Positions 1,874-17,080 of a stretch of DNA of 41,524 bases are shown here, one piece after another. The position numbers and the translations under genes are program-made. A model generated the notes under the pieces. The model was given only the letters and a program-made list of their open reading frames with translations. It was not told where the DNA came from and did not search any database. Position 1 is the first letter of the stretch. Each line of letters begins with the position of its first letter. Source of the DNA: a virus (lineage: Duplodnaviria; Heunggongvirae; Uroviricota; Caudoviricetes); the IMG/VR virus record IMGVR_UViG_2648501334_000009, positions 1 to 41,524 of that record; one strand, given 5' to 3'.

Positions 1874-2070
1874 TACTGGCTGCGACATTTTTGAATAAAA
1901 GCGTCGACATTTCGGCGCTCATAACGAACTACTTTTGCACTGAAACGAATTGGTGCCAGGATAGCCCGATGACGATGCTTAATATTCCACTCACATAGCG
2001 TTTTCTGTGTAATACCTAACTTTTGGCATACTTCATCCGGGGTGAGTAAATCGTCGGGTTTCTCGCTCAT
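1870..2070 (-). CDS. AlpA/excisionase-like helix-turn-helix DNA-binding protein
   Basis: 66-aa protein with the 'LLTPDEVCQKLGITQKTLCEW' HTH pattern typical of AlpA/Xis regulators; its start overlaps the helicase stop (ATGA), and its stop overlaps the integrase stop. Confidence 0.6.
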   Translation of the reverse strand: MSEKPDDLLTPDEVCQKLGITQKTLCEWNIKHRHRAILAPIRFSAKVVRYERRNVDAFIQKCRSQY

Positions 2071-3479
2071 GCTATACCTCTCTTTTTCATGGCATCGAGC
2101 AGGATGTCCTGCACTGTTCGTTTTGAGTTGCGCCGCTCCATCACCATTTCGTCCATAGTGTCGGCAGCAATAATGTGGTGAATAAATACCGGACGATTGT
2201 GTCCGGCCTGTATCTGCCTGGTGGGGCCGATACGTTCAATAATTTGCTGATATTGCTCCAGGTCCCACCAGTGTGAGAAAAATACCAGTATATTTCCGCC
2301 GTCCTGCATGTTCAGGCCGTGGCCCGCGCTGGCTGGGTGTGCAAAGAGAACAGGAATCTTTCCGGAATTCCAGTCGCGCAGTGTCTGTGGATCCTGGTCG
2401 AGGTGACGACCGCGAGGGAATGCTTTAAGCAAGCGTTCAAGATCGTGTTTCCAGTGATAAGCAACCAGCACAGGTGCGCCAGCTGCTTCGGTCAGTATGC
2501 TGTCCAGCGCCTGTAGTTTGGTGTCATGCAGTTCTGACCAACTTCCGGTGTCGTCTGTGTATACTGCGCCACTGGCGATTTGAAGACACTTCAGTGTCTT
2601 TGCCGCGGCGTTCGGTGCTTCGATGCCTTCGCTATTCAGCTCGAGGAACATTTCCTTTTCCATTTCACGATACTGCTGACGGGCCTTCGGGGGCATATCC
2701 ACGCGGATTACGTTATGGATGGGGTCTTTGATATCGAACCAGTCGGCCGCATCCAGCGAGAGGGTCACATCGGCTAATGCTCGCTGTATTTCACCCTGTG
2801 AGTGAGCAAAAGGTTCCAGTTTAGTCCAGCTCTGTCCCGGAAACTGTATCGAGTTGAACCAGCGTGAGGTAAACGCACCGTAAGTGCGCCCGAGACGTTG
2901 CCCCTGGTCCACAAACCACGCTTGTCCCCACAAATCTACCAGGCCGTTCGGTGCTGGCGTACCGGTGAGATTTATCCAGCGCCGGACATACTTATGCGCC
3001 ACTTTGCCCAGTGCCGCAGCGCGCTTACCACCACCTCGTAGCCGGAAGGATTTTAGCCGGGTGCTTTCATCTGGAATAACAGTACCGAACGGCCATCGTT
3101 CTCCCAATTCCTCAACCAGCCAGACAAGGTTATCGTAGTTGATGGTGAACACGCTCGCGTTGCTGTTCGCCAGCGCCGTAGAGCGCGCTTTGGCGTTACC
3201 GATAATCGGCTGTACCTCAATATTACGCAGGTGCCCCCATTTAACAGCTTCATCAGGCCAGGTGCTTGCTGCAACGCGTAGCGGCGCGAGGACCAGTGCG
3301 GGGCGTGTTTCTGCCCCTGCCATAAAGAGATCTTCCAGCGTAGTGAGCGTTGCCACGGTTTTACCCATTCCCATTCCTGCCCAAATATTGCAGCGGGAAA
3401 TACCTATTTCGTGATTAATAATTAGTTCTTGGTATAACCGGGGGGTAAAAGATATCATAACAAGAGATAACCTATACAC
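2067..3479 (-). CDS. SNF2-family ATP-dependent helicase
   Basis: Walker A-like 'AGMGMGKTVA' and a DExx box 'VIPDESTRLKS'. The true start may be an internal Met (MISFTPRLYQ). Confidence 0.7.
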   Translation of the reverse strand: MYRLSLVMISFTPRLYQELIINHEIGISRCNIWAGMGMGKTVATLTTLEDLFMAGAETRPALVLAPLRVAASTWPDEAVKWGHLRNIEVQPIIGNAKARSTALANSNASVFTINYDNLVWLVEELGERWPFGTVIPDESTRLKSFRLRGGGKRAAALGKVAHKYVRRWINLTGTPAPNGLVDLWGQAWFVDQGQRLGRTYGAFTSRWFNSIQFPGQSWTKLEPFAHSQGEIQRALADVTLSLDAADWFDIKDPIHNVIRVDMPPKARQQYREMEKEMFLELNSEGIEAPNAAAKTLKCLQIASGAVYTDDTGSWSELHDTKLQALDSILTEAAGAPVLVAYHWKHDLERLLKAFPRGRHLDQDPQTLRDWNSGKIPVLFAHPASAGHGLNMQDGGNILVFFSHWWDLEQYQQIIERIGPTRQIQAGHNRPVFIHHIIAADTMDEMVMERRNSKRTVQDILLDAMKKRGIA

Positions 3480-3500
3480 ATTCTGAGATTAGGGGTTAAA

Positions 3501-4121
3501 ATGGATATTTGGGAAAAAAGTAAAATTATTATATTTTTGCTTTTCGTTATTCCTGGTTTTATAAGTATGAAAGTTTATAGTGTTATTCATCCTAATACCG
3601 CTTTTGATACTTCTAAAGCGATTGTGGAAATTGTTTCTTATAGCTGTATAAATTACGCAGTATGGTTTGCTCCTATATATTTTATAGAATCTGAGGGTGT
3701 ATATCTCAAACATCCTGTTCTTTATTGTGCTTTATACTTGGTGATTTTATTCATTAGCCCAATATTGTTAACGATATTTTTCTCTTGGATGCGAACTTGG
3801 CGTTGGTTATGTAATTATATGCCACATCCTACCGGAAGAGCTTGGGATTATTTCTTTGGGTTAAAAGTCCCCTGTTGGATGATTATTACGCTAAAAAATG
3901 GTAAAAAAATAGCAGGCAAGTTTGGGGCTAACTCATTTGCTTCCAGTGCACCAGAGCCAGAGCAAATTTATCTTGAGGAACATTGGGTTCTAAACGATGA
4001 TGGGGGATTTGAACGCCCTCGAGTTTCAACATTAGGAATATTAATTTTAGGTAACGATATAGAAAATTTAGAGTTTTTCCGTTTTGAACTACCAACATGC
4101 AATAATGGAGAAAGCAACTGA
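3501..4121 (+). CDS. Hypothetical integral membrane protein (accessory moron)
   Basis: Three N-terminal hydrophobic helices followed by a soluble C-terminal domain; very AT-rich; on the opposite strand to the flanking early operon; AGGGG ribosome-binding site. Confidence 0.55.
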   Translation: MDIWEKSKIIIFLLFVIPGFISMKVYSVIHPNTAFDTSKAIVEIVSYSCINYAVWFAPIYFIESEGVYLKHPVLYCALYLVILFISPILLTIFFSWMRTWRWLCNYMPHPTGRAWDYFFGLKVPCWMIITLKNGKKIAGKFGANSFASSAPEPEQIYLEEHWVLNDDGGFERPRVSTLGILILGNDIENLEFFRFELPTCNNGESN

Positions 4122-4264
4122 TGTCAGATACCAAAAGAAGTTATAAGGAAGATGGATATACCCCTATTGAAAAAGGGTATCAGCCTAAAAATGACTTGGC
4201 TAATAATGGTTTTCAACCTTCGAAGCAAACTTCCCAGCCAGCTCCACCACCCAAAAAACCATAA
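4121..4264 (+). CDS. Small hypothetical protein, 47 aa (below the ORF-track cutoff)
   Basis: ATG overlaps the stop of the upstream ORF (TGATG); translates to MSDTKRSYKEDGYTPIEKGYQPKNDLANNGFQPSKQTSQPAPPPKKP; same AT-rich block. Confidence 0.35.
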   Translation: MSDTKRSYKEDGYTPIEKGYQPKNDLANNGFQPSKQTSQPAPPPKKP

Positions 4265-4570
4265 CTAAGTATTGGGGGGAATAATTCCCCCCAGCTCTTT
4301 GCTATCCAGTACCACCACGGTAAAGCCCAGCTTTCGCAGACGTTCATGTGTGCGCAACTGGTCAGGTCGTGGTGGTTTGCCGGGGGATTTACATTCAACG
4401 AAAACGATGCGACCGCCGGGTAGCAGAACAATGCGATCCGGTACCGAGCGGCGACCGGGAGATACGAACTTAAAGGCAACCCCGCCAGCTTTTTTCACTT
4501 CAGCGACGAGATGCTTTTCGATAAGGCTTTCACGTTCATAGGCCATCATCCACCGCCTTACGCTTTTCAC
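4265..4570 (-). CDS. VRR-NUC domain nuclease
   Basis: PD-(D/E)xK-type core 'PDRIVLLPGGRIVFVECKSPG'; size and context typical of phage VRR-NUC proteins. Confidence 0.75.
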   Translation of the reverse strand: MKSVRRWMMAYERESLIEKHLVAEVKKAGGVAFKFVSPGRRSVPDRIVLLPGGRIVFVECKSPGKPPRPDQLRTHERLRKLGFTVVVLDSKELGGIIPPNT

Positions 4571-4757
4571 GCATGTTCTGCATCAGGCAAGAATCAGCCC
4601 GGCGCTCTCTCCAGTCCTGATTAAGTTCGTTACGTGATTCACGGTTTGCTTTGGCCCAGACCTTCGCCGCCCGGTCATACTCGCCGGACTGCTCAAGGCG
4701 CAAAGCCTCCTGTGCAGTCCGATAATAAAGCGGACTGTCCCGATATTTAAATGACAT
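4536..4757 (-). CDS. Small hypothetical phage protein
   Basis: Start chosen at the internal Met (MSFKYRDSP...) with a GAGGT ribosome-binding site 8 nt upstream; overlaps the VRR-NUC start. Confidence 0.45.
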   Translation of the reverse strand: MSFKYRDSPLYYRTAQEALRLEQSGEYDRAAKVWAKANRESRNELNQDWRERRADSCLMQNMREKRKAVDDGL

Positions 4758-4773
4758 AGGGGTTACCTCAAAT

Positions 4774-4799
4774 AAATACCCCTGCATTTGCAGGGGTAT
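4774..4799. terminator. Perfect palindromic hairpin, candidate bidirectional terminator
   Basis: AATACCCCTGCA-TT-TGCAGGGGTATT, with A/T runs on both sides; lies between the TIR-like gene stop and the next gene. Confidence 0.6.
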
Positions 4800-4822
4800 T
4801 TACTTTTTAGAAAAATGATTGA

Positions 4823-5584
4823 TTAAGATGAAGCGTTCGCTATTTGAGCTTCATTAAATGTGAAACCGGCCTGTTTAAGGCGCTGGATTAAGCGAGGTAC
4901 AGTTTCTCGAACATGATCATTAAAGTTGAGATAAAGAATACCCGCAGCATCAGAAGGCTGTTCAAGGTGTTGCTTCTGCAAGATGACCACGTTACTGCGG
5001 CCGAGTGATGATAACAACATCCCCATTTCTAGAACTACATTTTGACGAGCCCTGGGCAGGGCTGCTTCTTGACCGTCTCTTTTGGAGTATCCCACATCAT
5101 CGGGAGTGAGAAGAACAATGCCGAAACGAGTCGCTGTCTGCCCTTGACCAATTTCACGCTCCAGTTCTTCAATTATCGTAAGTCCAGTACCACCTGTATT
5201 CTGCAAAATAAAATGATCAGGTAACCCAAGCTTATGAAGAATGAGCTCAAGCTGCTCTTTTGCTGCATGGTCGTGACCGTGAACGATGAAAATCTTTTTG
5301 GCTGGCTCTTGAACCGGGGCTGGCTGAACTCGTTGAGCTGGCGCGTTACCCAAGTGTTCATTAATAATGGCTTCAACCTCTGGTTTTGCCGCTTGTGAGC
5401 CTTGAATCAAAATCGTTCCGGTGTGGTAAAGCGTTATGATGGCACCATTACTTAAACGATAACAATCATGACCGGCTTTGTTTTCTTCTCCGGTAACATC
5501 AAATCCGGATTCGACTAAAAATTGACGAAAAGTTTCGACAGGGTGTGGGTATTTGAGAGCCATTTCATTGAGATCCTGCATCAT
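4823..5584 (-). CDS. Two-domain protein: N-terminal unknown domain plus C-terminal TIR-like (PF10137/Cap12-type) domain; candidate defence effector
   Basis: C-terminal motifs 'KKIFIVHGHD', 'FGIVLLTPDD' and 'RARQNVVLEMGMLLSSLGR' match my recollection of the TIR-like family consensus, with a conserved Glu in the ExG motif; AGGAAA ribosome-binding site; AT-rich 53-bp upstream spacer. Confidence 0.55.
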   Translation of the reverse strand: MMQDLNEMALKYPHPVETFRQFLVESGFDVTGEENKAGHDCYRLSNGAIITLYHTGTILIQGSQAAKPEVEAIINEHLGNAPAQRVQPAPVQEPAKKIFIVHGHDHAAKEQLELILHKLGLPDHFILQNTGGTGLTIIEELEREIGQGQTATRFGIVLLTPDDVGYSKRDGQEAALPRARQNVVLEMGMLLSSLGRSNVVILQKQHLEQPSDAAGILYLNFNDHVRETVPRLIQRLKQAGFTFNEAQIANASS

Positions 5585-5637
5585 TATTTTCCTATAAAAT
5601 AAGCAATATTTAGCAAAGCAGCAATGACAGCGAGCAG

Positions 5638-7713
5638 CTAATCCTTACGGTAGTGGTACGCCTCAAAACCGCCAGCGTTCAGTGGGATATCGGGCGCCCA
5701 TTCGGGGTTAGTGGAGAGAAGCGCGGAAAGCACTTTATCGTTGAAATCTTCTGTGTCAGGTGCTTCGGTGATCACCTCGTCGTGTACCGTCAACACAATG
5801 CTGTAACCGGCATCTTCGATAAGCGGCATGTTTCCGGCCAGAACGTCGCGGGCGGCCGCCTGGGTGACGTTCTCCACCAGCTTTCCGCCGTAGGTTTTGA
5901 GTCGTTGCCATTTACGCGAATAAGAGTTAACACCCATATAGGTGATATTCCCTTTTTCGATAACCGGAGACGGGTAGCATACAGCGCGTCCGGATGGTAG
6001 CTGTATGCGCAGCCACGCGCCATCACGTCGGATTTTAAGATAACCGCAATACAATGTTTTTTGCGGTGTGGCGATTGCTGTGCGGACAGTGCGCTCCAGC
6101 TCGTACCAGAAATCGCAGGTCGCCGGGTGCGCCCTGCGCCACAGGCGCTTGAGCGAGTCACATGCGATGAATACACGCTCGGAAAGGCCAAAGGTCGACT
6201 TACGTTTAACCGATTCGTCGTACCAGCTTTTCGCCTCGCGGATAACATCGCGGGGAATGTTTGGCAGTGCGGCGTTCGCCAGCTCGTCGAGATCGAGACC
6301 GTAAACCAGAGCAAAAGTGATGAAAGCCGATACACCACCTCCATAACCCAGACCGAGTTCCATGACTTTACCGATCTGACGCATGTGTTTATCAACATCA
6401 TCTGGTGCAATATCGAAAGCTTTTGCATACGCCAGTTTATATAAGTCCGGACCCGTTCCGGCGTCGTACTCTCTGAATGCATTCAGTTTCCATTCTTCTC
6501 CCGCCAGCCATGCCAGCATACGGCCTTCAATGTTTGACAAGTCACTTACCACCAGTTTTTTGCCTGTTGGCGCGATAATGCAGCCACGTAACGCTGAACT
6601 GGTTAGTTCCATGATATTGTCAAACAGCAGGTCTGCACATCCGGCTTTCAGTGCTTCGATGCCTTCGTCTATTTGTTCCTGTTTTAGTGAAGGGCGGGGA
6701 AGGTTCTGGGGCTGGAATAGCCGTCCGGCCCAACGACCGGTACGTGACGCCCCGCAGAACTGTAGCGTACCGCGTAAGCGCCCGTCGTGGCTTACGCCTT
6801 TCATCAGTGCCTTGTATTTACTGGTGCTGGTAGTACTGGCTTGCAGGCGGATAGCCAGCAGTTCTTTCACGGCAGATGGTAAATCGGGGTCGGCAATACG
6901 ACGTTCCAGAGTACTGCGTTGCATGTCTGGTAGCTCCACACTGTAGGATTCAACAATGTGCTTAATCAACGCGTCCCGTTGTGTGGCTGCCTGCACTTCG
7001 CCATCAGTCATTTCCTGTGTACGCTTTGCCAGGCGCTTTTGCTCCTGGTCTACCGCTTCGATCGCAGCGCGCGCGAGTTGCATGTCCATGCAGACGCCCC
7101 GGTCGTTGATCTGCTGATCACGATGCCAGAGCGCCAGCTCTGTCCCCTGATAATTCCACTTCGGCAGACGTTTATAGACTTCGCGCATTGCCTCGATATC
7201 CAGTCCGGCGTAAGCAACAAAGCGCCGCCATTCTTCCGGGTGGGTTTTGCTGGTGGCACGGCGCAGTTTGCTGTTTTTCGGGCGGGGCTTACAGAACAGC
7301 TGGATCAGCGCTTTACCTTCTTTGTCCTTCGCTTTGTCTTGCGGGACGCCGAGTATTTCGCAGAGTTCCCCCAGAGACCCCGGGAGACCATGCGCCAGCG
7401 CCTGTACCATTGTGTCTCGCCAGCGTTTGGCACTACCTGCAACAACACATTGGGGAGTGTGCAGCAATGCATGGCGCAACATGGTGCGATCGAAATGGCT
7501 GTTGTGTGCATATATTAGTACGCTCTCATCGCTGAGAGCTGTCAGTAGTCGTGTCGGCAAGTTATAGTCTGTGGTTAAATCGTGTACGCTGACGGGGTCT
7601 TCGTCGATTGCCCATGCGAATAACATGATTTCGACTCCTTCTGCATAGACATGGGTGCCGTTTTTTATTGGGATTTCGCTGAAAGTTTCGAGGTCTAACC
7701 AAAGTTTTTGCAT
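5638..7713 (-). CDS. Family A DNA polymerase with N-terminal 3'-5' exonuclease domain
   Basis: Exo I motif 'LDLETFS' near the N-terminus; motif C '[10 protein letters not shown]' and '[13 protein letters not shown]' near the C-terminus. Start placed at the internal Met (MQKLW); the tracked ORF extends to 7755. Confidence 0.8.
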
Positions 7714-7745
7714 CAAGTAAGGACCCGTTGGATTTAATAAATAAA

Positions 7746-7768
7746 AAGCCGCCAAAATGGCGGCTTTT
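7746..7768. terminator. Hairpin terminator downstream of the SIR2 gene
   Basis: AAAGCCGCC-AAAAT-GGCGGCTTT flanked by A and T runs. Confidence 0.55.
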
Positions 7769-7789
7769 TATAACCGAAGTTAAGAATGC

Positions 7790-9292
7790 TTAATATGATA
7801 AATAATCATACAGGCATAAAAGTCGCCTGTATTGGGTATCAATTTTATGCCCTGGTTTTGTTAAATAATCTCGTAGTTGTTTCAATGAAATAGTATCGTT
7901 TAGTACGCAATACATAATCGTGTTAGCAACTTTATACTCTTTCGTTTCTTTTAGTATTTCATCAATAGACACAGCCTCACTCTTACATGTTTTAATTCGA
8001 GAAAGGTTACCAATGATTTTATCTAGCTGCCGTTTTCTGTATGTCTCGGTATTTTCTAGTTCAGGGCAGATAGAACTAAAAGCGTATATTGGAAAGTGTT
8101 CGCTATTAGCTATGGTTTGCTTATTCAGTAATGCGATAAGCTGAGAGTTTGCTTCGTCAACTATTTTAAAATAGTTCTGTATCATTTCAGATTTTGTTTG
8201 ATAAACATATTGTACGGTTCTTTCTGAACCAACAGCAATGACCATTTCATCATTGCGAAGTTCATCTAAATTTTCTGTAATTTTAACCTTTATCTCACCA
8301 CCACTTTTGATGGTACTCCAAACTTTTTGAACCTTTCTTATGTCCATTGCGGATACTGGCAAAACTAGTCCAGAGATGGCATCATATACAGCTTTGTAAT
8401 TGTTTGTTTTTATTTTGTTTATTCTTATGATAGACATGCCTTCTATATCTATGTCATGCTCCGTAATTTCAGTTGACATGCTGTCTTTTTCGTATTCAAC
8501 CAAAAGGAAATTATCTTTTATCCTTTTTGCAAGTTCGGTATTTAAGTCAACGTATGAGAATATGGTTTTTAATAAGTACTTAATGTTTTTATCGCTAATA
8601 CTATACCCTATAAATATGATAGGGTTGTGTATGAATATTGAGAGTAATTGAGCGCGAATTAACTCATATTTATTGTCGAAGTTTGCGTAGTCTTCACCTG
8701 TGATAATTATGTTGTTAGGATCACTAACACAGCCATGTATTTTGTAAACTGAACCGTATGGGTTACTTAAAAGAATGTTGTTACCAATCAGTGGGTTAAA
8801 TTCGAAGATATTCTCTACGAGTTGGTCGTAGTTTGTTGTAATGATGGAGCCTATGTTTTTTCTTGTTTTTATTAAGCTGTTTATTTCCTCCATCATTGAC
8901 TCTTTTATCTTTAGGTCTTTAAGTATTGAAGTTAAATAAATTTTGAATCGACTTAGTTTTTTTCCTTTTTTCATGTGCTCATAGAAAACATCATTGATGT
9001 CTTTGAACTTACCGTTACGATCTTCTGCCAGCTTTTTATTAAAAATATCTTCAAGTTTTGTAGCTAAGATATCATATCGATAGTCGTCACCTTCTAGGCT
9101 TTCAGCTTTCAAATCGTAGTAAAACTCAGCATTACCGGTTAGTTCCATTGCGACACTCAAAAGAAGACCATCCCAGCTAAATGAGTTTTCTAGATACCGT
9201 AGGCTAAATCCTGTTCCAATGAATAGAACAGGGTGGTTTTTATAGTGACTTACAAACTCTTGGATTTCCATACCGATTCTCAAAGTTGACAC
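7790..9292 (-). CDS. SIR2-domain protein (sirtuin-like NAD-binding fold) with an uncharacterised C-terminal domain; candidate anti-phage defence protein
   Basis: Motifs 'PVLFIGTGFS' (GxGxS loop), 'ITTNYDQLVE', 'VYKIHGCVSDP', 'IFIGYSISDKNIKYLL' align with the Thoeris ThsA SIR2 domain as I recall it; strongly AT-rich; GTG start with an AGAGG ribosome-binding site; own terminator. Confidence 0.7.
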   Translation of the reverse strand: MSTLRIGMEIQEFVSHYKNHPVLFIGTGFSLRYLENSFSWDGLLLSVAMELTGNAEFYYDLKAESLEGDDYRYDILATKLEDIFNKKLAEDRNGKFKDINDVFYEHMKKGKKLSRFKIYLTSILKDLKIKESMMEEINSLIKTRKNIGSIITTNYDQLVENIFEFNPLIGNNILLSNPYGSVYKIHGCVSDPNNIIITGEDYANFDNKYELIRAQLLSIFIHNPIIFIGYSISDKNIKYLLKTIFSYVDLNTELAKRIKDNFLLVEYEKDSMSTEITEHDIDIEGMSIIRINKIKTNNYKAVYDAISGLVLPVSAMDIRKVQKVWSTIKSGGEIKVKITENLDELRNDEMVIAVGSERTVQYVYQTKSEMIQNYFKIVDEANSQLIALLNKQTIANSEHFPIYAFSSICPELENTETYRKRQLDKIIGNLSRIKTCKSEAVSIDEILKETKEYKVANTIMYCVLNDTISLKQLRDYLTKPGHKIDTQYRRLLCLYDYLSY

Positions 9293-9382
9293 GTAATACC
9301 TCTATAAAAACAAATAGCCGTAAAAATTCCAATAGCTTTTTGGATCTCGCCCGGCGTGTAACCGGGCGTCTATGAAGAAGGG

Positions 9383-9931
9383 TTAAATCAGTGCTTCAGC
9401 ATCAGCACCTTCGCTGATATCGTCGAAATCGTCAGCGCTTGCCACTCCGCCGCCAGCGAATGCATCGCCGTCTCGCAGGAACTGGACTCCGCCGAGTGAG
9501 GCATTAATGCGTTTACCGAAATTATTGTCCTGTGCCCAGATATCGATAACGGCGTTTACATAGCACCCTGCATAGGGACGTCCATCAGCCTGAATTAGTG
9601 GCGAACGATCGCGATCAAGAACAGCTGGGCGCGCTTTGTTAGCAGCGTTCAGGAAGAAATTGCCGGGAAAGCCTTCATACTCTGCTTTTTCATCACCATC
9701 ATGCAGGCACAGATTGAGTTTTTTCTCCAGCTGGTTATAAATGGACTCCCACTTCTCCCCCCATTTTTCCTTCGCTACCTGCTTCATAGCTTTACGGATT
9801 TCTTCCAGTTGTGGGTGTTTGGGAGACATTAAAAATACTGCGGAGAAACGCGGATCGCCTTCGCCGTTTACAGTTTTAGCTTCAAACAGAGACGGGAAGG
9901 CCAGACGAACATTGTTCAGCTTCAGTTTCAT
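9383..9931 (-). CDS. DUF2815-like phage protein, putative ssDNA-binding protein
   Basis: N-terminus 'MKLKLNNVRLAFPSLFE' and acidic C-terminal tail; sits between the DUF2800-like nuclease and the polymerase as in related phage replication modules. Confidence 0.55.
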   Translation of the reverse strand: MKLKLNNVRLAFPSLFEAKTVNGEGDPRFSAVFLMSPKHPQLEEIRKAMKQVAKEKWGEKWESIYNQLEKKLNLCLHDGDEKAEYEGFPGNFFLNAANKARPAVLDRDRSPLIQADGRPYAGCYVNAVIDIWAQDNNFGKRINASLGGVQFLRDGDAFAGGGVASADDFDDISEGADAEALI

Positions 9932-9946
9932 GGGGATTTCCTTAAA

Positions 9947-11248
9947 TCAGATGAGGTCTGCGGTTAGCGTATCGTCGGATACGTCGTCGAAATCATTTAC
10001 AGGGTTGATATTGAGTGCGGGGCGTGGGTCTGACTCGGGAACGATGGTGGGTTTACCATCAGCTCGTGTTATCAGTGCCTCGACTTTTGACCAACGGCGC
10101 GGACTGGCCTTTTTGATAAGTTTTTCGGCTTTTGTGGGACTAATAAGTTTAAAGTCGAATACTTCTTCAGTTTTGTACCTGAACTGGTCCTTCAGAAGTG
10201 CGCGAGCTGCCTCTTCGTCACTCCAGGCCCGGTTACCTTGTTTTCCTGTTACCAGTTTAAACCCCGGTACCGGATGTCCGGCATTGAGTTCATTGTGAAC
10301 CCGGTCCCGTACTGCCTTTAGCCAGGATTCAATAAAGTCGGCCTGGCTATAGATCTCTGCAAGCTGCTCAATGGTTAACAGAGGTACACGTGCGCTGGCA
10401 TTGGTGATTATTTCGCTGACAGGCTTTGTCAGATCTTCAAAATCGCTGGCCGCTGTTTGTAAATGCTGCATTTTCTGGGCAGTGCAAATAGCTTTTGCTT
10501 TACAGAAGCGGCACTGTTTTTCTCCAGGTATGAAGTTTTCCAGTGGTAGTGTCTCAATGCCTTCGCATTCAGCAATATTGAGAACAAGGATCGCACTGGT
10601 TGCGGCCTCCAGCGCCCGTTTACCGAAAGACTGAAGTTCCTGTACGGTTAACGACCATTCTGAAACGTGGTTGAGCCTTGGTTGGTGAATAAATAATCTT
10701 ACAGTTTCAAAGTCATACAGCATGCTGAATTGTTCAAGCGCACCCAGAGCATACAGTTGTAGTTGCTCATTTTGTTCTGCATCAATGCGGACGCCTTTGC
10801 CATATTTCAGGTCGTGGATTTGTAATTCGTTACCAGCGATGATTATGCCGTCGGCAGTTCCGAAAGATTCTTCCACACCCGTTATATGTGAGAAATCAAC
10901 ACGTTGTTCAACCAATAGTTCATTATTCTTTGCAAGAGTCCAGACCGTATCAACATACCGGCCGACGGCTTCGACCATTTCATCATCCACCTGTGGGCCA
11001 GATGTATCATCAGGATTTTCGCGAAGGGGGTATGAGCCTAGAAACATAGAAACATTGCATCCGGCGTAGTGTTCCGGGTGGCTTTGCCTGTTTCGTAGAA
11101 CTTTTTCAGCAAGCGCGTGCGCTGCAGTGCCCTCGATTGCAAAAGTTGTTTCTTTATCCGGTTGTGTGGCCTCCAGCGCCAGACTTCCTGGGCAGCGCAT
11201 CCATCGATGCGCTGATGATGGAGAAAGTTGTGCATGAACGTCTGGCAT
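9947..11248 (-). CDS. DUF2800-like PD-(D/E)xK nuclease (Cas4-like)
   Basis: N-terminus '[15 protein letters not shown]' and a C-terminal cysteine cluster '[10 protein letters not shown]'. Confidence 0.6.
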
Positions 11249-12332: not shown

Positions 12333-12415
12333 GCTGTTGCGAGTGCGCTTTCAGACATAAAAAAGCCCGTCACGTGAGGCGGGCAAAGACTACACACAGC
12401 AATTACATGGATGAT

Positions 12416-12610
12416 TCAGTTGGTATTGTGCGTACGTGGTACCACAAGGTTGAAGCGGACACGCCAGTGCGTTGCAATGGTATGCAGGAAAGCACCACAT
12501 CCAGGGCAGTGCTCATAACATTCGTTGATTTGGTATCGTTTTGGCTTTGGTGTCAGAAGCTGTGTTTGGCAAGCAGGGCATTCACCTTTGAGCGGTTTAT
12601 ACGTTTTCAC
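12416..12610 (-). CDS. Small zinc-ribbon protein
   Basis: 64 aa with CPAC...CPGC cysteine pairs; first gene leftward of the immunity region. Confidence 0.4.
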   Translation of the reverse strand: MKTYKPLKGECPACQTQLLTPKPKRYQINECYEHCPGCGAFLHTIATHWRVRFNLVVPRTHNTN

Positions 12611-12932
12611 GCCGTTTCCTCATTCAGTTCACTTTGGTGGTTCGGCGGCTTCGACTTGTATCAGTAGACAGTGCTTCGCCGCACCCCAAAGGGAACTTAC
12701 TGACCCGTATTGCCGACATCCTGTCCCGCCACGGTCCCGACGCATGGTTTAGAGTCGCGCCGTTCGACTTGTGGCTAAAGATACAATTTGAGTTGTATTG
12801 TGTAAACCACAAATGTGGTATTTTGTGGGGTGTGAATACTACTTTATTGATATTTAAGTGAATTTAATTTGTAAGACTTTACAAATGGGGTAAGGGAGGC
12901 TGTTACGCCTCCCGATATTTACGGTGGGAATA

Positions 12933-13556
12933 CTAACGTTTACGGCGGTAAATACGGTGTTCGATCATTACACCTATGATCTGTAAGTTCATATCTGCAC
13001 TACGAAAAATAGGGTAATCAGGATTTAGGGGGATTAATTCAAAGTCGTCGATGCCGATTCCTAATGGACGGTATTTTTTAAATGTAGCTTCGTGACCGTC
13101 GTTTTTGGCGACAACAAACTCCCCTGGTGCAGGACATAGATCAGGATCGATGATAACAATGTCTCCTTCTTTAAACTCTGGTTGCATGCTGTCGCCATCG
13201 ATACGTAATGCGAAGCATGTTTCTGGAATGTCAGAGTCTGCCAAAATATATTCAAATTCCCCTGTCAGATCTGTTATGTCTCTTGCTTCTGTAAGCTCTC
13301 CTGCCTGAACGTAACTTAATATAGGTATGCGTCTGGTACTTATCTCCGCGAGAGGCATAATATTTTTACCGTTCAGTAGCCAGTCTGGGCTACATTTCAA
13401 GGCCTTAGCCAGATCCAGAAGATTGCGTGGCTTTCTGGTTCGTCCGCTTTCGATGGATTCTATGGATTGTTGGCTAACCCCTGCAGAATTCGCTACTTCC
13501 ACTTGAGTCATTCCTAATTCCAAACGACGTGCTTTAAAACGGGCTGCGAGAGACAT
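12933..13556 (-). CDS. cI: CI-like prophage repressor (HTH plus S24 LexA-like peptidase domain)
   Basis: N-terminal HTH 'LGMTQVEVANSAGVSQQSIESIESG'; C-terminal Ser/Lys dyad region 'RIDGDSMQPEF...VVAKNDG'; start at the internal Met with a GAAGGA ribosome-binding site; divergent from cro. Confidence 0.85.
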   Translation of the reverse strand: MSLAARFKARRLELGMTQVEVANSAGVSQQSIESIESGRTRKPRNLLDLAKALKCSPDWLLNGKNIMPLAEISTRRIPILSYVQAGELTEARDITDLTGEFEYILADSDIPETCFALRIDGDSMQPEFKEGDIVIIDPDLCPAPGEFVVAKNDGHEATFKKYRPLGIGIDDFELIPLNPDYPIFRSADMNLQIIGVMIEHRIYRRKR

Positions 13557-13676
13557 GGGATTAGTCCTTCTGGGTTGTATTAATGTGTATCCCCACATTA
13601 AAAACAATTTTTGTTGTATTTGACAAACCTCATTTGTTGTTGCTAAATACCACTAAAATTGTATGAGGTGAAAGCA
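13557..13676. promoter_or_regulatory. cI-cro intergenic operator/promoter region
   Basis: 22-bp palindrome TTAATGTG-N6-CACATTAA at 13580..13601; TTGACA at 13620..13625 and TAAATA at 13644..13649 about 18 bp apart; GAGGTG ribosome-binding site before cro. Confidence 0.5.
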
Positions 13677-13889
13677 ATGACCTTAGCGACCCGAGTAAAA
13701 GAACGACGTAAAGAACTCAAAATGACGCAAGTTACGTTGGCTGAGCTCACAGGAGTGAGCCAGCAGGCAATAAACAGAATTGAAAGTGGTGTTATTGCTC
13801 GGCCACGTTATCTTCTTGAAATGTCTATAGCATTGGATTGCGACCCTAATTGGCTGTTGTATGGCTCACAAAACGATAAAAAGGCTTAA
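13677..13889 (+). CDS. cro: Cro-like HTH regulator
   Basis: HTH 'MTQVTLAELTGVSQQAINRIESG'; divergent from the repressor gene. Confidence 0.7.
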   Translation: MTLATRVKERRKELKMTQVTLAELTGVSQQAINRIESGVIARPRYLLEMSIALDCDPNWLLYGSQNDKKA

Positions 13890-13892
13890 CCC

Positions 13893-16085
13893 ATGTCCGA
13901 TAGCAAACCATGGGGAGCTACGCCTGATGAGTGGTTTCATTTCGACCTGGTATTGGGGAGAACTGATCATCTTCTCCCAGTTGTATGTAACCCCAGTGCG
14001 ACCATATCCCCTGATAGTAAACTGAAAGCGTTGGGTAAGACGCCGAGTCGCTATAACCGGGACCGCCAGGTCACCGGTATTGCTCAATGGACCGGGCATG
14101 TTGTTACTGAGCATGATTTTGCCCGCTGGTCGAATGAACCGGATTATGGCATCTGCGTGCGTACAGGCCATGGCTGGCTGGCGCTGGACTGTGATAGCGA
14201 AGATGAAGACATTCAGGCAGATATTCGCAAAACGCTTGTGCAACGTCTGGGTGAGTTGCCGCCGCGACGCTGGCGAGCAAACAGTAATAAGTGTCTGTAT
14301 CTGCTGGCCGTTGATGGTGATTTCCGTAAGCGTATCCATCGCCTGGCGGGGGATATGGGCATTATCGAGTTGCTGGCGAACGGGCAGCAGTTCGTTGCCT
14401 GCGGTACGCACAGCAGCGGCGCGCGTATTGAATGGGACGGCGGTTTGCCGGATGAACCTCCGGCTATTACTGGTGAGCAGCTTGAAACGCTGTGGCAGCG
14501 CCTGGCTGAACAACTCCCTGTGTCGGTAACCACCGAAGCGGGCAACACGAAGATGCGCGACCGATCAGCATTCACGCCCGGCGCGACGGATGATACAGCT
14601 GAATATCTTGATGCCAATGGCTGGACGCTGCTGGATGGCGCAAATGGTGAACGATATATCCGCTGTCCGTTTGAAGACGGCCACAGTAGCGGGGGCGATC
14701 CAACAAGCACAGTTTATTTTCCTGCGGGAACCGCGGGCTTTGAGCAGGGGCATTTTAAATGCCTGCATGCCAGTTGTGCGCATCGTGATGACGGAGATTT
14801 CCTTAATGCCATCGGGATCCGCAACGACGATTTCGAAGATCTGACCAGCACCGAAGTGGCGGAACCTTTACCGCTGCCTGCTTTCGAGCGTGATAAATGG
14901 GGGCGTATCGAGGCAACAATCAGCAACGCAGCCAAAGCAGTAGTACGCCCTGATTTTGTGGACATCGATATTCGCTTTGACCAGTTCCGCGACGAAATCA
15001 TGTTTGCCCCTGCAGGATCCGGACAATGGCGGGCATTCACTGATGCGGATTATGCGCGCCTACGCATCACGATGGAAAAGCGGGGATTTAAACCTGTTGG
15101 TCGTGAACTTATTCGCGATGTGGTGTTACTTGCAGCCGATGAACAACCATTCGATTCAGCGATCACCTGGCTGAACGGACTGGAGTGGGATGGCGTGCCG
15201 CGCATCGAATGTTTCTACCATACGCACTTCGGTACCGCCGACACGCCTTATACCCGTGCGGTGTCTATGTACATGTGGACCGCGTTGGCGGGGCGAGTAC
15301 TGGAGCCAGGCATCAAAGCGGATATGGTGCCGATCCTCGTTGGTCCGCAGGGCTGCGGTAAGTCTTCCGGAGTGGAGGCACTGAGCCCTGATCCTGCGTT
15401 TTTTACTGAAATCTCTTTTGCCGAAAAAGACGATGATCTCGCTCGAAAAATGCGTGGTCGGCTGGTGGCAGAGATTGGTGAACTGCGCGGACTTAATACC
15501 AAAGAGCTGGAGTCAATCAAAGCGTTTGTGACGCGTACTCACGAAAACTGGATCCCGAAATACCGGGAGTTCGCCACCCAGTTTCCTCGTCGCCTGGTGT
15601 TCGTTGGTACCACTAATGAGGACGAATTCCTTGCGGACAAGACTGGTAACCGTCGCTGGCTCCCCGTGGAAGTGTCGAAAGTCGACGTGAAAGCGATAAA
15701 AAGAGATCTCCTTTTACTTTGGGCTGAGGCTCGTGAGGTGTTTCAGCGTCTGGGGGGTATCCAGTTCCGTGAGGCTGAACAACTGGCAGCGAGTGTCCAT
15801 GAACAGTACACCATCAAGGATGCTTGGCTTGAAACGGTAGAGAAATGGCTCGACACGCCAGACCTGATGACTAATGAACTTCCGCGAAATTGCGAATTTT
15901 TACGCGCAAGTGATGTTTTGCGTGATGCGATTGGGCTAAATCCTGACCGCATCGGAAAACGCGAAGAAATGCGAATTAGTAATGTTTTGCAAAATTGCGG
16001 GTATAAGCGTGCCCAAAGGCGAATTGGGGGGAAAATGACTCGAATTTTTGAGGCGGTGTCCCAACCTGTACCAACCTCAAAATAG
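13893..16085 (+). CDS. Bifunctional primase/helicase-type replication protein (P4-alpha-like, P-loop NTPase)
   Basis: N-terminal primase-polymerase-like region; Walker A 'VGPQGCGKSS'; Walker B-like 'RLVFVGTTNE'. Confidence 0.75.
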   Translation: MSDSKPWGATPDEWFHFDLVLGRTDHLLPVVCNPSATISPDSKLKALGKTPSRYNRDRQVTGIAQWTGHVVTEHDFARWSNEPDYGICVRTGHGWLALDCDSEDEDIQADIRKTLVQRLGELPPRRWRANSNKCLYLLAVDGDFRKRIHRLAGDMGIIELLANGQQFVACGTHSSGARIEWDGGLPDEPPAITGEQLETLWQRLAEQLPVSVTTEAGNTKMRDRSAFTPGATDDTAEYLDANGWTLLDGANGERYIRCPFEDGHSSGGDPTSTVYFPAGTAGFEQGHFKCLHASCAHRDDGDFLNAIGIRNDDFEDLTSTEVAEPLPLPAFERDKWGRIEATISNAAKAVVRPDFVDIDIRFDQFRDEIMFAPAGSGQWRAFTDADYARLRITMEKRGFKPVGRELIRDVVLLAADEQPFDSAITWLNGLEWDGVPRIECFYHTHFGTADTPYTRAVSMYMWTALAGRVLEPGIKADMVPILVGPQGCGKSSGVEALSPDPAFFTEISFAEKDDDLARKMRGRLVAEIGELRGLNTKELESIKAFVTRTHENWIPKYREFATQFPRRLVFVGTTNEDEFLADKTGNRRWLPVEVSKVDVKAIKRDLLLLWAEAREVFQRLGGIQFREAEQLAASVHEQYTIKDAWLETVEKWLDTPDLMTNELPRNCEFLRASDVLRDAIGLNPDRIGKREEMRISNVLQNCGYKRAQRRIGGKMTRIFEAVSQPVPTSK

Positions 16086-16240
16086 AGGTTGGTACATTTT
16101 AACTAATTGAATTTAAAGGCCAGTACCAACTGTACCATCTGTACCAACCTAATTACTAAGAACCCCATATATATATATAAGTCGCTTGGGGAAAAGGTTT
16201 GAAAAGAGCTGGTACAGGTGGGTACAGGTTGGTACAGGCC
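16066..16240. repeat. Iteron array (candidate replication origin or protein-binding array)
   Basis: At least eight copies of the core TGTACC/GGTACA in both orientations; three tandem 10-bp repeats GGTACAGG(T/C)N at 16211, 16221, 16231; an ATATATATATA tract at 16168..16179; a 12-bp inverted repeat across the primase stop (TGTACCAACCTC/GAGGTTGGTACA). Confidence 0.5.
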
Positions 16241-16366
16241 GAACAAGGAATTTTTTGCACATAACAGCGTGTAATAAGCGAATCGGAACTGCGTTATCCA
16301 CACCCACGGATAAACAAACGTGGTTCTCAGAAAATTTTTTCGTAGCAAAACGTAGAGGTCAGAGCT

Positions 16367-16801
16367 ATGCGTAATATTCAACAGGTTTTAGAGCGCTGGG
16401 GTGGCTGGGCTGCCAATAGCAACACCACAGTGAGCTGGGCTCCAATAGCGGCGGGATTTAAAGGGCTGGTAGTCAGCAGCTCGCCTGGCAGGCTGAGTTG
16501 CTGTGACGACGATGGCCTGATTATCGATGCTTGCGTCTGTCGACTGCAGCAGGTCCGTAAGCCTGAGGAACTGGACGTCATTATGCTGTACTACGTCTAC
16601 GGGTTAAGCAAACGTGAGATAGGGCGGCGGCGTCGCTGTTCTGAAGGATTTATCCGCCAGCAGTTGCAGGTAGCTGAGGGATTCATTGAGGGGTGTCTCT
16701 GCATGCTGGGTGTGAGCCTTCAGATGGATCCTGAGGTCGAAATTCAAAGGGATGAAAAAAGTATTAGTGCGCTACGCAAAAACTGCGCTACGCTGGTATG
16801 A
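16367..16801 (+). CDS. Q: Late-gene antiterminator Q
   Basis: N-terminus 'MRNIQQVLERWGGWAAN' and the 'CCDDD' motif match my recollection of lambdoid Q (QuuD-like) proteins; sits upstream of the lysis cassette. Confidence 0.75.
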   Translation: MRNIQQVLERWGGWAANSNTTVSWAPIAAGFKGLVVSSSPGRLSCCDDDGLIIDACVCRLQQVRKPEELDVIMLYYVYGLSKREIGRRRRCSEGFIRQQLQVAEGFIEGCLCMLGVSLQMDPEVEIQRDEKSISALRKNCATLV

Positions 16802-16825
16802 GTTGAATTTCTGACCTCAACGAAG

Positions 16826-16850
16826 AGCTCCAAATCATTGGGGCTTTTTT
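16826..16850 (+). terminator. Candidate rho-independent terminator just after Q
   Basis: AGCTCC-AAATCATT-GGGGCT (one G-U pair) followed by TTTTTT. Confidence 0.4.
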
Positions 16851-17080
16851 AATGCTTTATTCTCAGTAAAAGTTAATAAAACAGGGTTTTCGTCGCGAAA
16901 AAACGCTATGCAGTTTTTGCCCTTTTTTATGCACCTTTTATTCACTCGAATTTCGCCATTCTGGACCACTTAAGTTGATTAAATAGGCCTTTCATCGCAA
17001 ATCTATTGCGAGCGGTGATCGTGTGGTTCCTATAACGTACATTATGTTAAATAACTTCCTTTTTTAACAAATTTAACAAG

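Follow-up and report, generated by a model that had tools for sequence, protein, structure and literature searches.

The DNA examined here, hereafter the window, is a 41,524-nucleotide stretch from a tailed virus (Caudoviricetes; IMG/VR record IMGVR_UViG_2648501334_000009). It is an Escherichia coli prophage, and its segment 13600-16900 is 100% identical to strain ECONIH2. The window carries a gene for a primase-helicase, the putative replication initiator, and further downstream the gene for the antiterminator Q. A cluster of short repeats (iterons) starts within the first of these genes, at its 3' end, and extends into the interval before Q (16057-16236; Table 1). We regard this cluster as very probably the replication origin of the prophage, of the 'pri-rep-ori' type described for Staphylococcus aureus pathogenicity islands (SaPIs) and phage-inducible chromosomal islands (PICIs), and as the binding site of the phage's own, presumably self-loading, primase-helicase. 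This reading is based on the fit of its features to the published definition of SaPI origins and on the E. coli PICIs, which follow the same plan.

The iteron cluster and the initiator gene

On the + strand, 16057-16236 contains nine copies of the 10-mer TGTACCAACC ('>') or its inverted form GGTTGGTACA ('<'). The exact core GGTACA/TGTACC occurs seven times in 170 bp (16067-16236), compared with 24 times in the other 41.3 kb, and the degenerate copies at 16057 (TGTCCCAACC) and 16122 (AGTACCAACT) bring the number of 10-mers to nine. Among all hexamers of the 41.5-kb window none clusters more strongly, and nothing of similar strength was found elsewhere in it. First-order Markov simulations of the window (n=300) gave at most 3 copies per 180 bp, and the Poisson probability of seven or more copies was ~2e-11; clustering by chance is therefore excluded. 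A second cluster of the 10-mer was not found in the window, which has only two isolated one-mismatch copies elsewhere (37225 and 39449). Tandem Repeats Finder reported arrays at 16057-16077 (period 10, 2.1 copies), 16123-16148 (period 9, 2.9 copies) and 16211-16238 (period 10, 2.8 copies).

Table 1. Features of the iteron cluster and its initiator gene, followed by neighbouring genes (+ and -, strand; > and <, orientation of iterons)
Feature	Position	Strand or orientation	Remarks
Replication initiator gene	13893-16085	+	730 aa; Prim-Pol (archaeo-eukaryotic primase, AEP) N-terminal, VapE/superfamily 3 (SF3) helicase central, winged helix C-terminal
Predicted winged-helix domain	15819-16055	+	Residues 643-721
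Wing strand 2 codons	16035-16052	+	Residues 715-720, MTRIFE; inferred iteron-specificity determinant, left edge of swapped cassette
Left iteron group	16057-16096	> > <	Direct 16057-16066 TGTCCCAACC, direct 16067-16076 TGTACCAACC, inverted 16087-16096 GGTTGGTACA
Iteron	16057	>	1 mismatch to TGTACCAACC
Iteron	16067	>	0 mismatches
Iteron	16087	<	0 mismatches
First AT-rich spacer	16097-16121		TTTTAACTAATTGAATTTAAAGGCC; partly conserved
Middle array	16122-16149	+	Three direct iterons AGTACCAAC TGTACCATC TGTACCAACC, 9-bp period, facing core
Iteron	16122	>	2 mismatches
Iteron	16131	>	2 mismatches
Iteron	16140	>	0 mismatches
Central core	16150-16206		ACTAAGAA-CCCCA-(TA)6-AGTCGCTTGGGGAAAAGGTTTGAAAAG; candidate DNA-unwinding element, conserved across iteron classes
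Right array	16207-16236	-	Three inverted iterons AGCTGGTACA GGTGGGTACA GGTTGGTACA, 10-bp period, facing core
Iteron	16207	<	2 mismatches
Iteron	16217	<	1 mismatch
Iteron	16227	<	0 mismatches
Antiterminator Q gene	16367-16801	+	Pfam Phage_antitermQ, E = 8.7e-51; context, outside origin
Cro-like helix-turn-helix gene	13659-13889		Upstream of primase gene
LexA/CI-type repressor gene	12933-13607	-	Upstream of primase gene
DUF2800/PD-(D/E)XK nuclease gene	9947-11248	-	Early-left operon
Enc34-type single-stranded DNA-binding protein (SSB) gene	9383-9931	-	Early-left operon
SIR2-like gene	7790-9292	-	PF13289; interleaved with replisome genes
Family-A DNA polymerase gene	5638-7755	-	Early-left operon
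TIR-domain gene	4823-5584	-	PF10137; interleaved with replisome genes
SNF2 helicase gene	2067-3479	-	Early-left operon

The first two copies of the left group lie within the 3' end of the open reading frame (ORF), and their translation gives the C-terminal residues SQPVPTSK. An inverted pair with 12-nt arms (16067-16078 and 16085-16096; 100% complementary, 6-nt loop) forms a palindrome, 16067-16096, that spans the TAG stop codon at 16083-16085. As RNA, this palindrome folds into a hairpin (dG = -23.3 kcal/mol, z = -5.2) that is followed by UUUU. The GC fraction is 0.33 across 16070-16159, and the first spacer contains the motif TTTAACTAATTG, which is common to different iteron classes. Between the middle and right arrays, a (TA)6 tract at 16168-16179 lies within CCCCA(TA)6AGTCGCTTGGGG. 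We tried and dropped a cruciform or hairpin model of the core (single-strand fold z = -0.18 versus shuffles), and an Rfam search of 15700-16700 (E <= 1) gave no RNA family.

Several details differ from the original prediction. It had counted the core at least eight times in about 180 bp; the cluster is real, but only seven cores are exact. The 10-bp phasing it described holds for the two outer arrays but not for the middle array, whose 9-bp period recurs in relatives. It had placed the array immediately after the primase gene, which the array does adjoin, but the two copies that are translated lie inside the ORF. The inverted pair across the stop codon and the neighbouring (AT)n tract were both described correctly.

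The initiator has three recognizable parts. Pfam placed a VapE-like domain at residues 427-639 (E = 2.3e-60) and, with the N-terminus scanned alone, Prim-Pol PF09250 at residues 53-185 (40.9 bits, cut-off 22.8; E = 3.8e-10); together with DUF5906 these were its only Pfam matches, none of them to another replication-initiator family. NCBIfam gave no match for the 730-aa protein. The sole sequence match of phmmer in the PDB was 7pds_A (E = 7.9e-34, residues 393-657), an entry that shows the Rep helicase of SaPIbov1 with DNA as solved by cryo-EM (PMC9371898). We modelled the full-length initiator with AlphaFold2 (predicted local distance difference test, pLDDT, 71); the model matched 7pds in Foldseek as well (E = 8e-18, ~460 columns), and its N-terminus matched the prim-pol of pRN1 ORF904 (1rni/3m1m). 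In the model, the C-terminal domain forms a winged helix with helices at residues 643-653, 672-680 and 689-701 and wing strands at 704-711 and 714-721.

The tail translated from the iterons reads SQPVPTSK in the window and LCTNLYQPKIGRLVHY in phage APSE-3 (L001, ~1596-1645), and in other relatives the ORF stops before the first iteron. The tail is therefore a by-product of the reach of the ORF into the origin.

Conservation of the layout and covariation with the initiator wing

We compared the locus with 24 genomic loci and 80 IMG/VR loci (single loci bear L numbers) as well as APSE-3 and Yersinia phage YeP4. The original prediction of a prophage origin, or of a cis-acting site of the adjacent primase, had been tied to conservation of the repeats in relatives. 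In 78-79 distinct regions the ortholog is followed by the same layout, and this comparative evidence strongly supports the predicted function. The regions come from Enterobacterales, APSE phages, Gilliamella and Burkholderiales, and the layout persists down to 51-58% protein identity (a Burkholderiales metagenome-assembled genome and Gilliamella). On the left, two direct copies and one inverted copy are followed by a spacer of ~25-35 bp and three direct copies at 9-bp spacing. The core reads CCCCA(TA)5-6 AGTCG.TTGGGGAAAGGTTAGAAAA, and the inverted copies on the right, three or in some loci two, are spaced 9-10 bp apart. Distances are fixed: ~27 bp separate the start of the last middle iteron from the TA run, and ~40 bp the TA run from the right array. 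The '> > <' group is kept while the stop codon slides relative to its first copy, from -45 in APSE-3 through -26 in the window up to +10, which argues that coding constraints did not shape the array.

The central core was conserved regardless of iteron sequence in an alignment of 19 loci from 10 iteron classes. For footprinting we used six loci of the window's iteron class from divergent hosts (Xenorhabdus, Photorhabdus and others). Mean pairwise identity was highest in the iteron columns (91%), followed by the core (81%), the upstream coding sequence (75%), the spacers (62%) and the downstream sequence (30%). In many relatives (L003, L051, L060, L061, L077 and others) a segment ~10-60 bp past the right array, AACATGTAATTTATTGCAGGTAGCGATATGCAA, is also conserved. 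These relatives do not have the window's Q-upstream segment, and AACATGTAATTTATTGCAGGTAGCGATATGCAA may serve another downstream gene as its promoter or a regulatory site.

The iteron sequence itself varies among relatives and falls into at least 11 classes: TGTACCAACC, TGGAACCACC, TGTCCCAACC, TGTCCC(C/T)ACC, TGTAACCACC, TGTATCCACC, TGTTACCACC, TGTAGCCACC, TGTAACAACC, TAGACAACC, TAGACCACC and TGTCACCAC. We anchored the C-terminal sequences of the initiators on the REEMRI motif and related each segment to iteron class by adjusted mutual information (AMI). Wing strand 2 (residues 715-720) gave an AMI of 0.70, compared with 0.38 for wing strand 1 and the turn (residues 705-714) and 0.32 for helix 3. 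One strand-1 sequence, KRVQRRVDGK, was found with seven iteron classes. Strand-2 variants pair with the classes almost one to one: M/V-T/V-R-I-F-E (MTRIFE in the window) with TGTACCAACC, K-C/S-K-V-W-E (e.g. KCKVWE) with TGGAACCACC, KMRIFE with TGTCCCAACC, QQR(V/I)F (e.g. QQRVFV) with TAGACAACC, QIRVWV with TAGACCACC and LMKVW (e.g. LMKVWQ) with TGTTACCACC. At position 5 of the strand, F or Y pairs with CAACC and W with CCACC.

Scored with class-specific hexamers, the left and right arrays belonged to the same class in 69 of the 79 unique loci; the remaining 10 had one-nucleotide variants mixed on both sides, or poorly defined arrays. Hybrids of clearly different classes were not seen in any of the 79 regions, despite the conserved core as a potential recombination site. 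Six loci (L056, L058, L063, L052, L071 and L013) mix TGTAACCACC and TGTATCCACC, which are one base apart, on both sides of the TA run, and these origins pair with wing strands VLKVW(V/I/T) or VCKVWE. Such mixed origins, of which L056 is an example, may be intermediates of specificity drift.

Locus L035 is informative in this respect. From 11393 to ~16035 (cI, cro and the primase-helicase gene up to residue 714) it shares 97-100% identity with the window, but unlike the window it carries KCKVWE and TGGAACCACC iterons. Across 16020-16300 its identity to the window is 45-78%, and at 16300-16380 the value is again 95-100%. At higher resolution, DNA identity to L032 and L035 is 98-100% up to the 16020-16059 bin, where it is 62%, and the protein tails put the break between residues 714 and 715. 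To judge from these alignments, L035 amounts to a natural swap of a specificity cassette. Neither cI nor cro co-varied with iteron class. The gene downstream is likewise independent of class: L056 combines a window-like Q region (85-100% identity, 16340-16600) with a different class, and L096 and L079 combine the window's class with unrelated downstream sequence.

Other exchanges are visible at both flanks. L032 and L035 remain 95-100% identical to the window until ~16380 and then drop to 35-68% (16380-16900), which suggests that a different Q allele was joined within the first codons of Q. In the immunity region (cI/cro, window 12374-13900), L032, L034 and L039 are only 38-74% identical to the window, while their adjoining primase gene is 98-100% identical; L035 shares the immunity region of the window. 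These immunity-region differences are the usual modular mosaicism, with breakpoints at ~12390 and ~13900.

We tentatively propose, at somewhat less than even confidence, that wing strand 715-720 is a compact and exchangeable recognition code, that near-identical phages carry at least 11 mutually orthogonal initiator/origin specificities, and that the strand moves together with the 250-bp origin (~16035-16290) as one cassette. If so, co-resident prophages and satellites may be kept from firing or hijacking each other's origins. The origin as such is an ordinary kind of feature, like that of SaPIs and PICIs, and the greater interest lies in this specificity series. Its iteron classes, each with a six-residue wing variant, provide a natural panel for studying how the wing of a winged helix reads DNA, and this panel could serve in the building of orthogonal replicons.

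Proposed mechanism, alternatives and prophage context

We infer iteron binding, melting, self-loading of the helicase and the replication start site from the sequence and its relatives. In the mechanism we propose, the winged helix would bind the 9-10-bp iterons, with wing strand 2 reading the variable half of the site. The facing three-copy arrays bracket the conserved AT-rich CCCCA(TA)6 core, which the assembled protein would melt. The helicase would then load itself, probably as two hexamers, one per side, and prime with its own primase, after which the family-A polymerase and SSB of the phage would take over. An auxiliary binding role is probable for the left '> > <' group over the stop codon, whose RNA hairpin may partly terminate transcription before Q.

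Some observations weigh against this interpretation. AT content peaks in the first spacer (16077-16117, 78% AT) and not in the (TA)6 core, which leaves the site of melting uncertain, and in single-strand DNA structure the core did not differ from shuffled sequence. A second cis-acting site elsewhere is conceivable, and the window is perhaps not the entire prophage. The covariation of wing and iterons could also partly reflect physical linkage within one recombination cassette, as the wing codons are only 4 bp from the first iteron. Selection in addition to linkage is suggested by three findings: breakpoints recur at the boundary between strands 1 and 2; the MTRIFE/VTRIFE codons differ synonymously between hosts while residues and iterons persist; and the right array, ~170 bp away, is concordant in class with the left arrays.

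The cluster might instead be an auxiliary site bound by the primase-helicase, with replication starting elsewhere in the prophage, as in phage P4. The crr region of P4, which starts 46 bp after the alpha gene, contains an AT-rich stretch surrounded by type I repeats in both orientations; the true ori is located beyond the opposite end of that gene, 4.5 kb from crr. However, the initiator studied here is unrelated to alpha, the window lacks a second cluster of the 10-mer or a comparable hexamer cluster, and in the homologous SaPI and PICI replicons the array that follows rep is itself the origin. We therefore consider a crr-like role unlikely. A predominantly transcriptional signal, in which the stop-codon hairpin acts as an intrinsic terminator or attenuator that times Q and the other repeats are incidental, is very unlikely, even though a terminator scan picked exactly this hairpin (12 pairs, then TTTT), its fold is stable, and Q would be read through it. 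The T-tract has only 4 nt and is absent in L032, L060, L077, L013 and APSE-3, where the inverted pair is kept. Moreover, such a signal explains neither the six further copies placed symmetrically around the conserved (TA)n core nor the co-variation with the wing of the protein. As a secondary role, a transcriptional signal is plausible. Termination at the left hairpin has at most a secondary and non-conserved role, given that several relatives keep the palindrome without the T-tract. A weaker possibility is that occupancy of the stop-codon palindrome by the initiator modulates read-through into Q, which would couple replication to late gene expression.

The repeats could also serve a phage protein other than the primase-helicase, such as CI, Cro, Q or a partition protein; operators are typically short repeats in both orientations near regulatory genes, and this array lies upstream of Q. 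The cI and cro genes of L035 are 98-100% identical to those of the window, yet its iteron class is different, which rules out CI and Cro as binding partners. The cI-cro intergenic region does not contain the motif, the pairing with Q is broken in both directions by L056 and by L096 and L079, and the ORFs scanned against Pfam include an integrase but no partition protein. We thus regard an operator function as highly improbable. Replication slippage can create short tandem units, but we give next to no credence to a functionless repeat made by slippage or chance: more than 3 hits never occurred in 300 simulations, Gamma- and Betaproteobacteria share the conserved architecture, and the iteron columns are conserved better than coding sequence. 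An origin bound by the adjacent initiator remains the reading that we favour.

With regard to transcription, a promoter scan of 15800-16500 found no sigma-70-like site. Transcription of Q thus probably starts at the early rightward promoter and passes through the origin. The RNA fold of 16270-16366, upstream of Q, was not significant (z = -0.95). The only perfect consensus DnaA box in the window (TTATCCACA, 16294-16302) lies 58 bp past the last iteron, within an imperfect palindrome upstream of Q. Only relatives that have this Q-upstream segment in common with the window share the box (L032; L056 has TTACCCAC), and most relatives lack it. As it is not conserved across the family, we left it out of the conserved origin.

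In E. coli, 66 of 5,426 complete genomes had a place covering at least 80% of 13600-16900. Pfam identified a holin gene downstream, alongside Q. The late region matches complete myophage genomes such as vB_EcoM-611R5 (96% identity over 82% of length); genes for terminase, tail sheath, baseplate and tail fibres are among those matched. An early-left operon (2067-11248, minus strand) encodes replisome genes and an integrase (Pfam), and as it has a polymerase, an SSB, a nuclease and a helicase, the phage carries much of its own replisome. The interleaved TIR-domain and SIR2-like genes look like anti-phage defence cargo.

No origin is annotated at this place in the records of E. coli ECONIH2, APSE-3 and YeP4, and our literature search found no description of this origin in these phages. 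A comparative-genomics paper on APSE placed the origin only by the skew-based originX and mentioned neither primase nor helicase. The present analysis offers a concrete origin annotation for widespread temperate phages of Enterobacterales, including APSE of aphid symbionts and Yersinia YeP4-6.

Comparison with known replicons

P4 alpha combines primase, SF3 helicase and C-terminal origin binding in one polypeptide, and the initiator described here would do the same, its origin binding being deduced from the predicted winged helix. In both cases a repeat-bearing cis site lies directly downstream of the gene, although here it overlaps the stop codon, and the P4 record has 8-bp repeats in both orientations in crr. 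The original prediction had accordingly named a P4-type primase, and this attribution did not hold: there is no sequence similarity to alpha (BLASTP E = 0.72), and in Pfam alpha consists of Zn-ribbon, Toprim, D5_N and Pox_D5 domains, in contrast to Prim-Pol and VapE here. The repeat of P4 is TGTTCACC, and its bipartite arrangement, with shared repeats in the separate ori and crr regions, differs from the single cluster in the window. P4 crr is a positional analogue only, and the SaPI/PICI pri-rep-ori is the better one.

In phage lambda, the N-terminal domain of O binds the iterons, and O is a non-helicase initiator that recruits host DnaB via P. Four ~20-bp repeats lie in the middle of gene O, and the iterons of lambda, P22 (gene 18) and L differ (PMC8022706). 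The cluster described here resembles this type in that iterons stand beside an AT-rich segment, within or overlapping the coding sequence of the initiator, so that the specificity domain and its sites can be inherited as a cassette. It differs in that the initiator is itself a primase-helicase and that its 9-10-bp sites lie at the 3' end of the gene, where a C-terminal wing would read them; no lambda-O-type Pfam match was obtained.

The archaeal plasmid pRN1 has the same domain order. Its ORF904 is a prim-pol followed by an SF3 helicase (PMC2777425), and its minimal replicon requires 166 bp downstream (PMC4234260). The N-terminus of the initiator matches this prim-pol structurally; the best structural match of the helicase is 7pds and not pRN1.

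In SaPIs, the origin has been defined as 6-12 short iterons directly downstream of rep, at least two per side in opposite orientation around an AT-rich centre; the C-terminal winged helix of Rep binds them, and the Rep helicase self-loads without a loader (PMC9371898). E. coli PICIs follow the same plan, and the cloned rep and ori of EcCICFT073 replicate a plasmid in E. coli (PMC6092414). The locus in the window agrees with this definition. Its initiator has a VapE-like SF3 helicase homologous to SaPI Rep, a primase fused to the helicase as in SaPI5 PriRep (in this type, primase and helicase are adjacent or fused) and a predicted C-terminal winged helix; nine iterons lie at the 3' end of the gene, three direct and three inverted ones flanking the AT-rich centre. 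There are also differences. The iterons are 9-10 bp long, compared with 5-6 nt in SaPIs and PICIs, and the first two lie within the ORF. The palindromic '> > <' group and the conserved CCCCA(TA)n core are additional, and the primase is a Prim-Pol of the pRN1 type. Finally, the element that carries the cluster is not a satellite but a complete temperate tailed phage. By these features the cluster appears to belong to the SaPI/PICI Rep-ori type, and the element would be a phage that uses a PICI-like replicon. The self-loading Rep/iteron replicon of SaPIs and PICIs would thus also be used by complete phages of Gram-negative bacteria.

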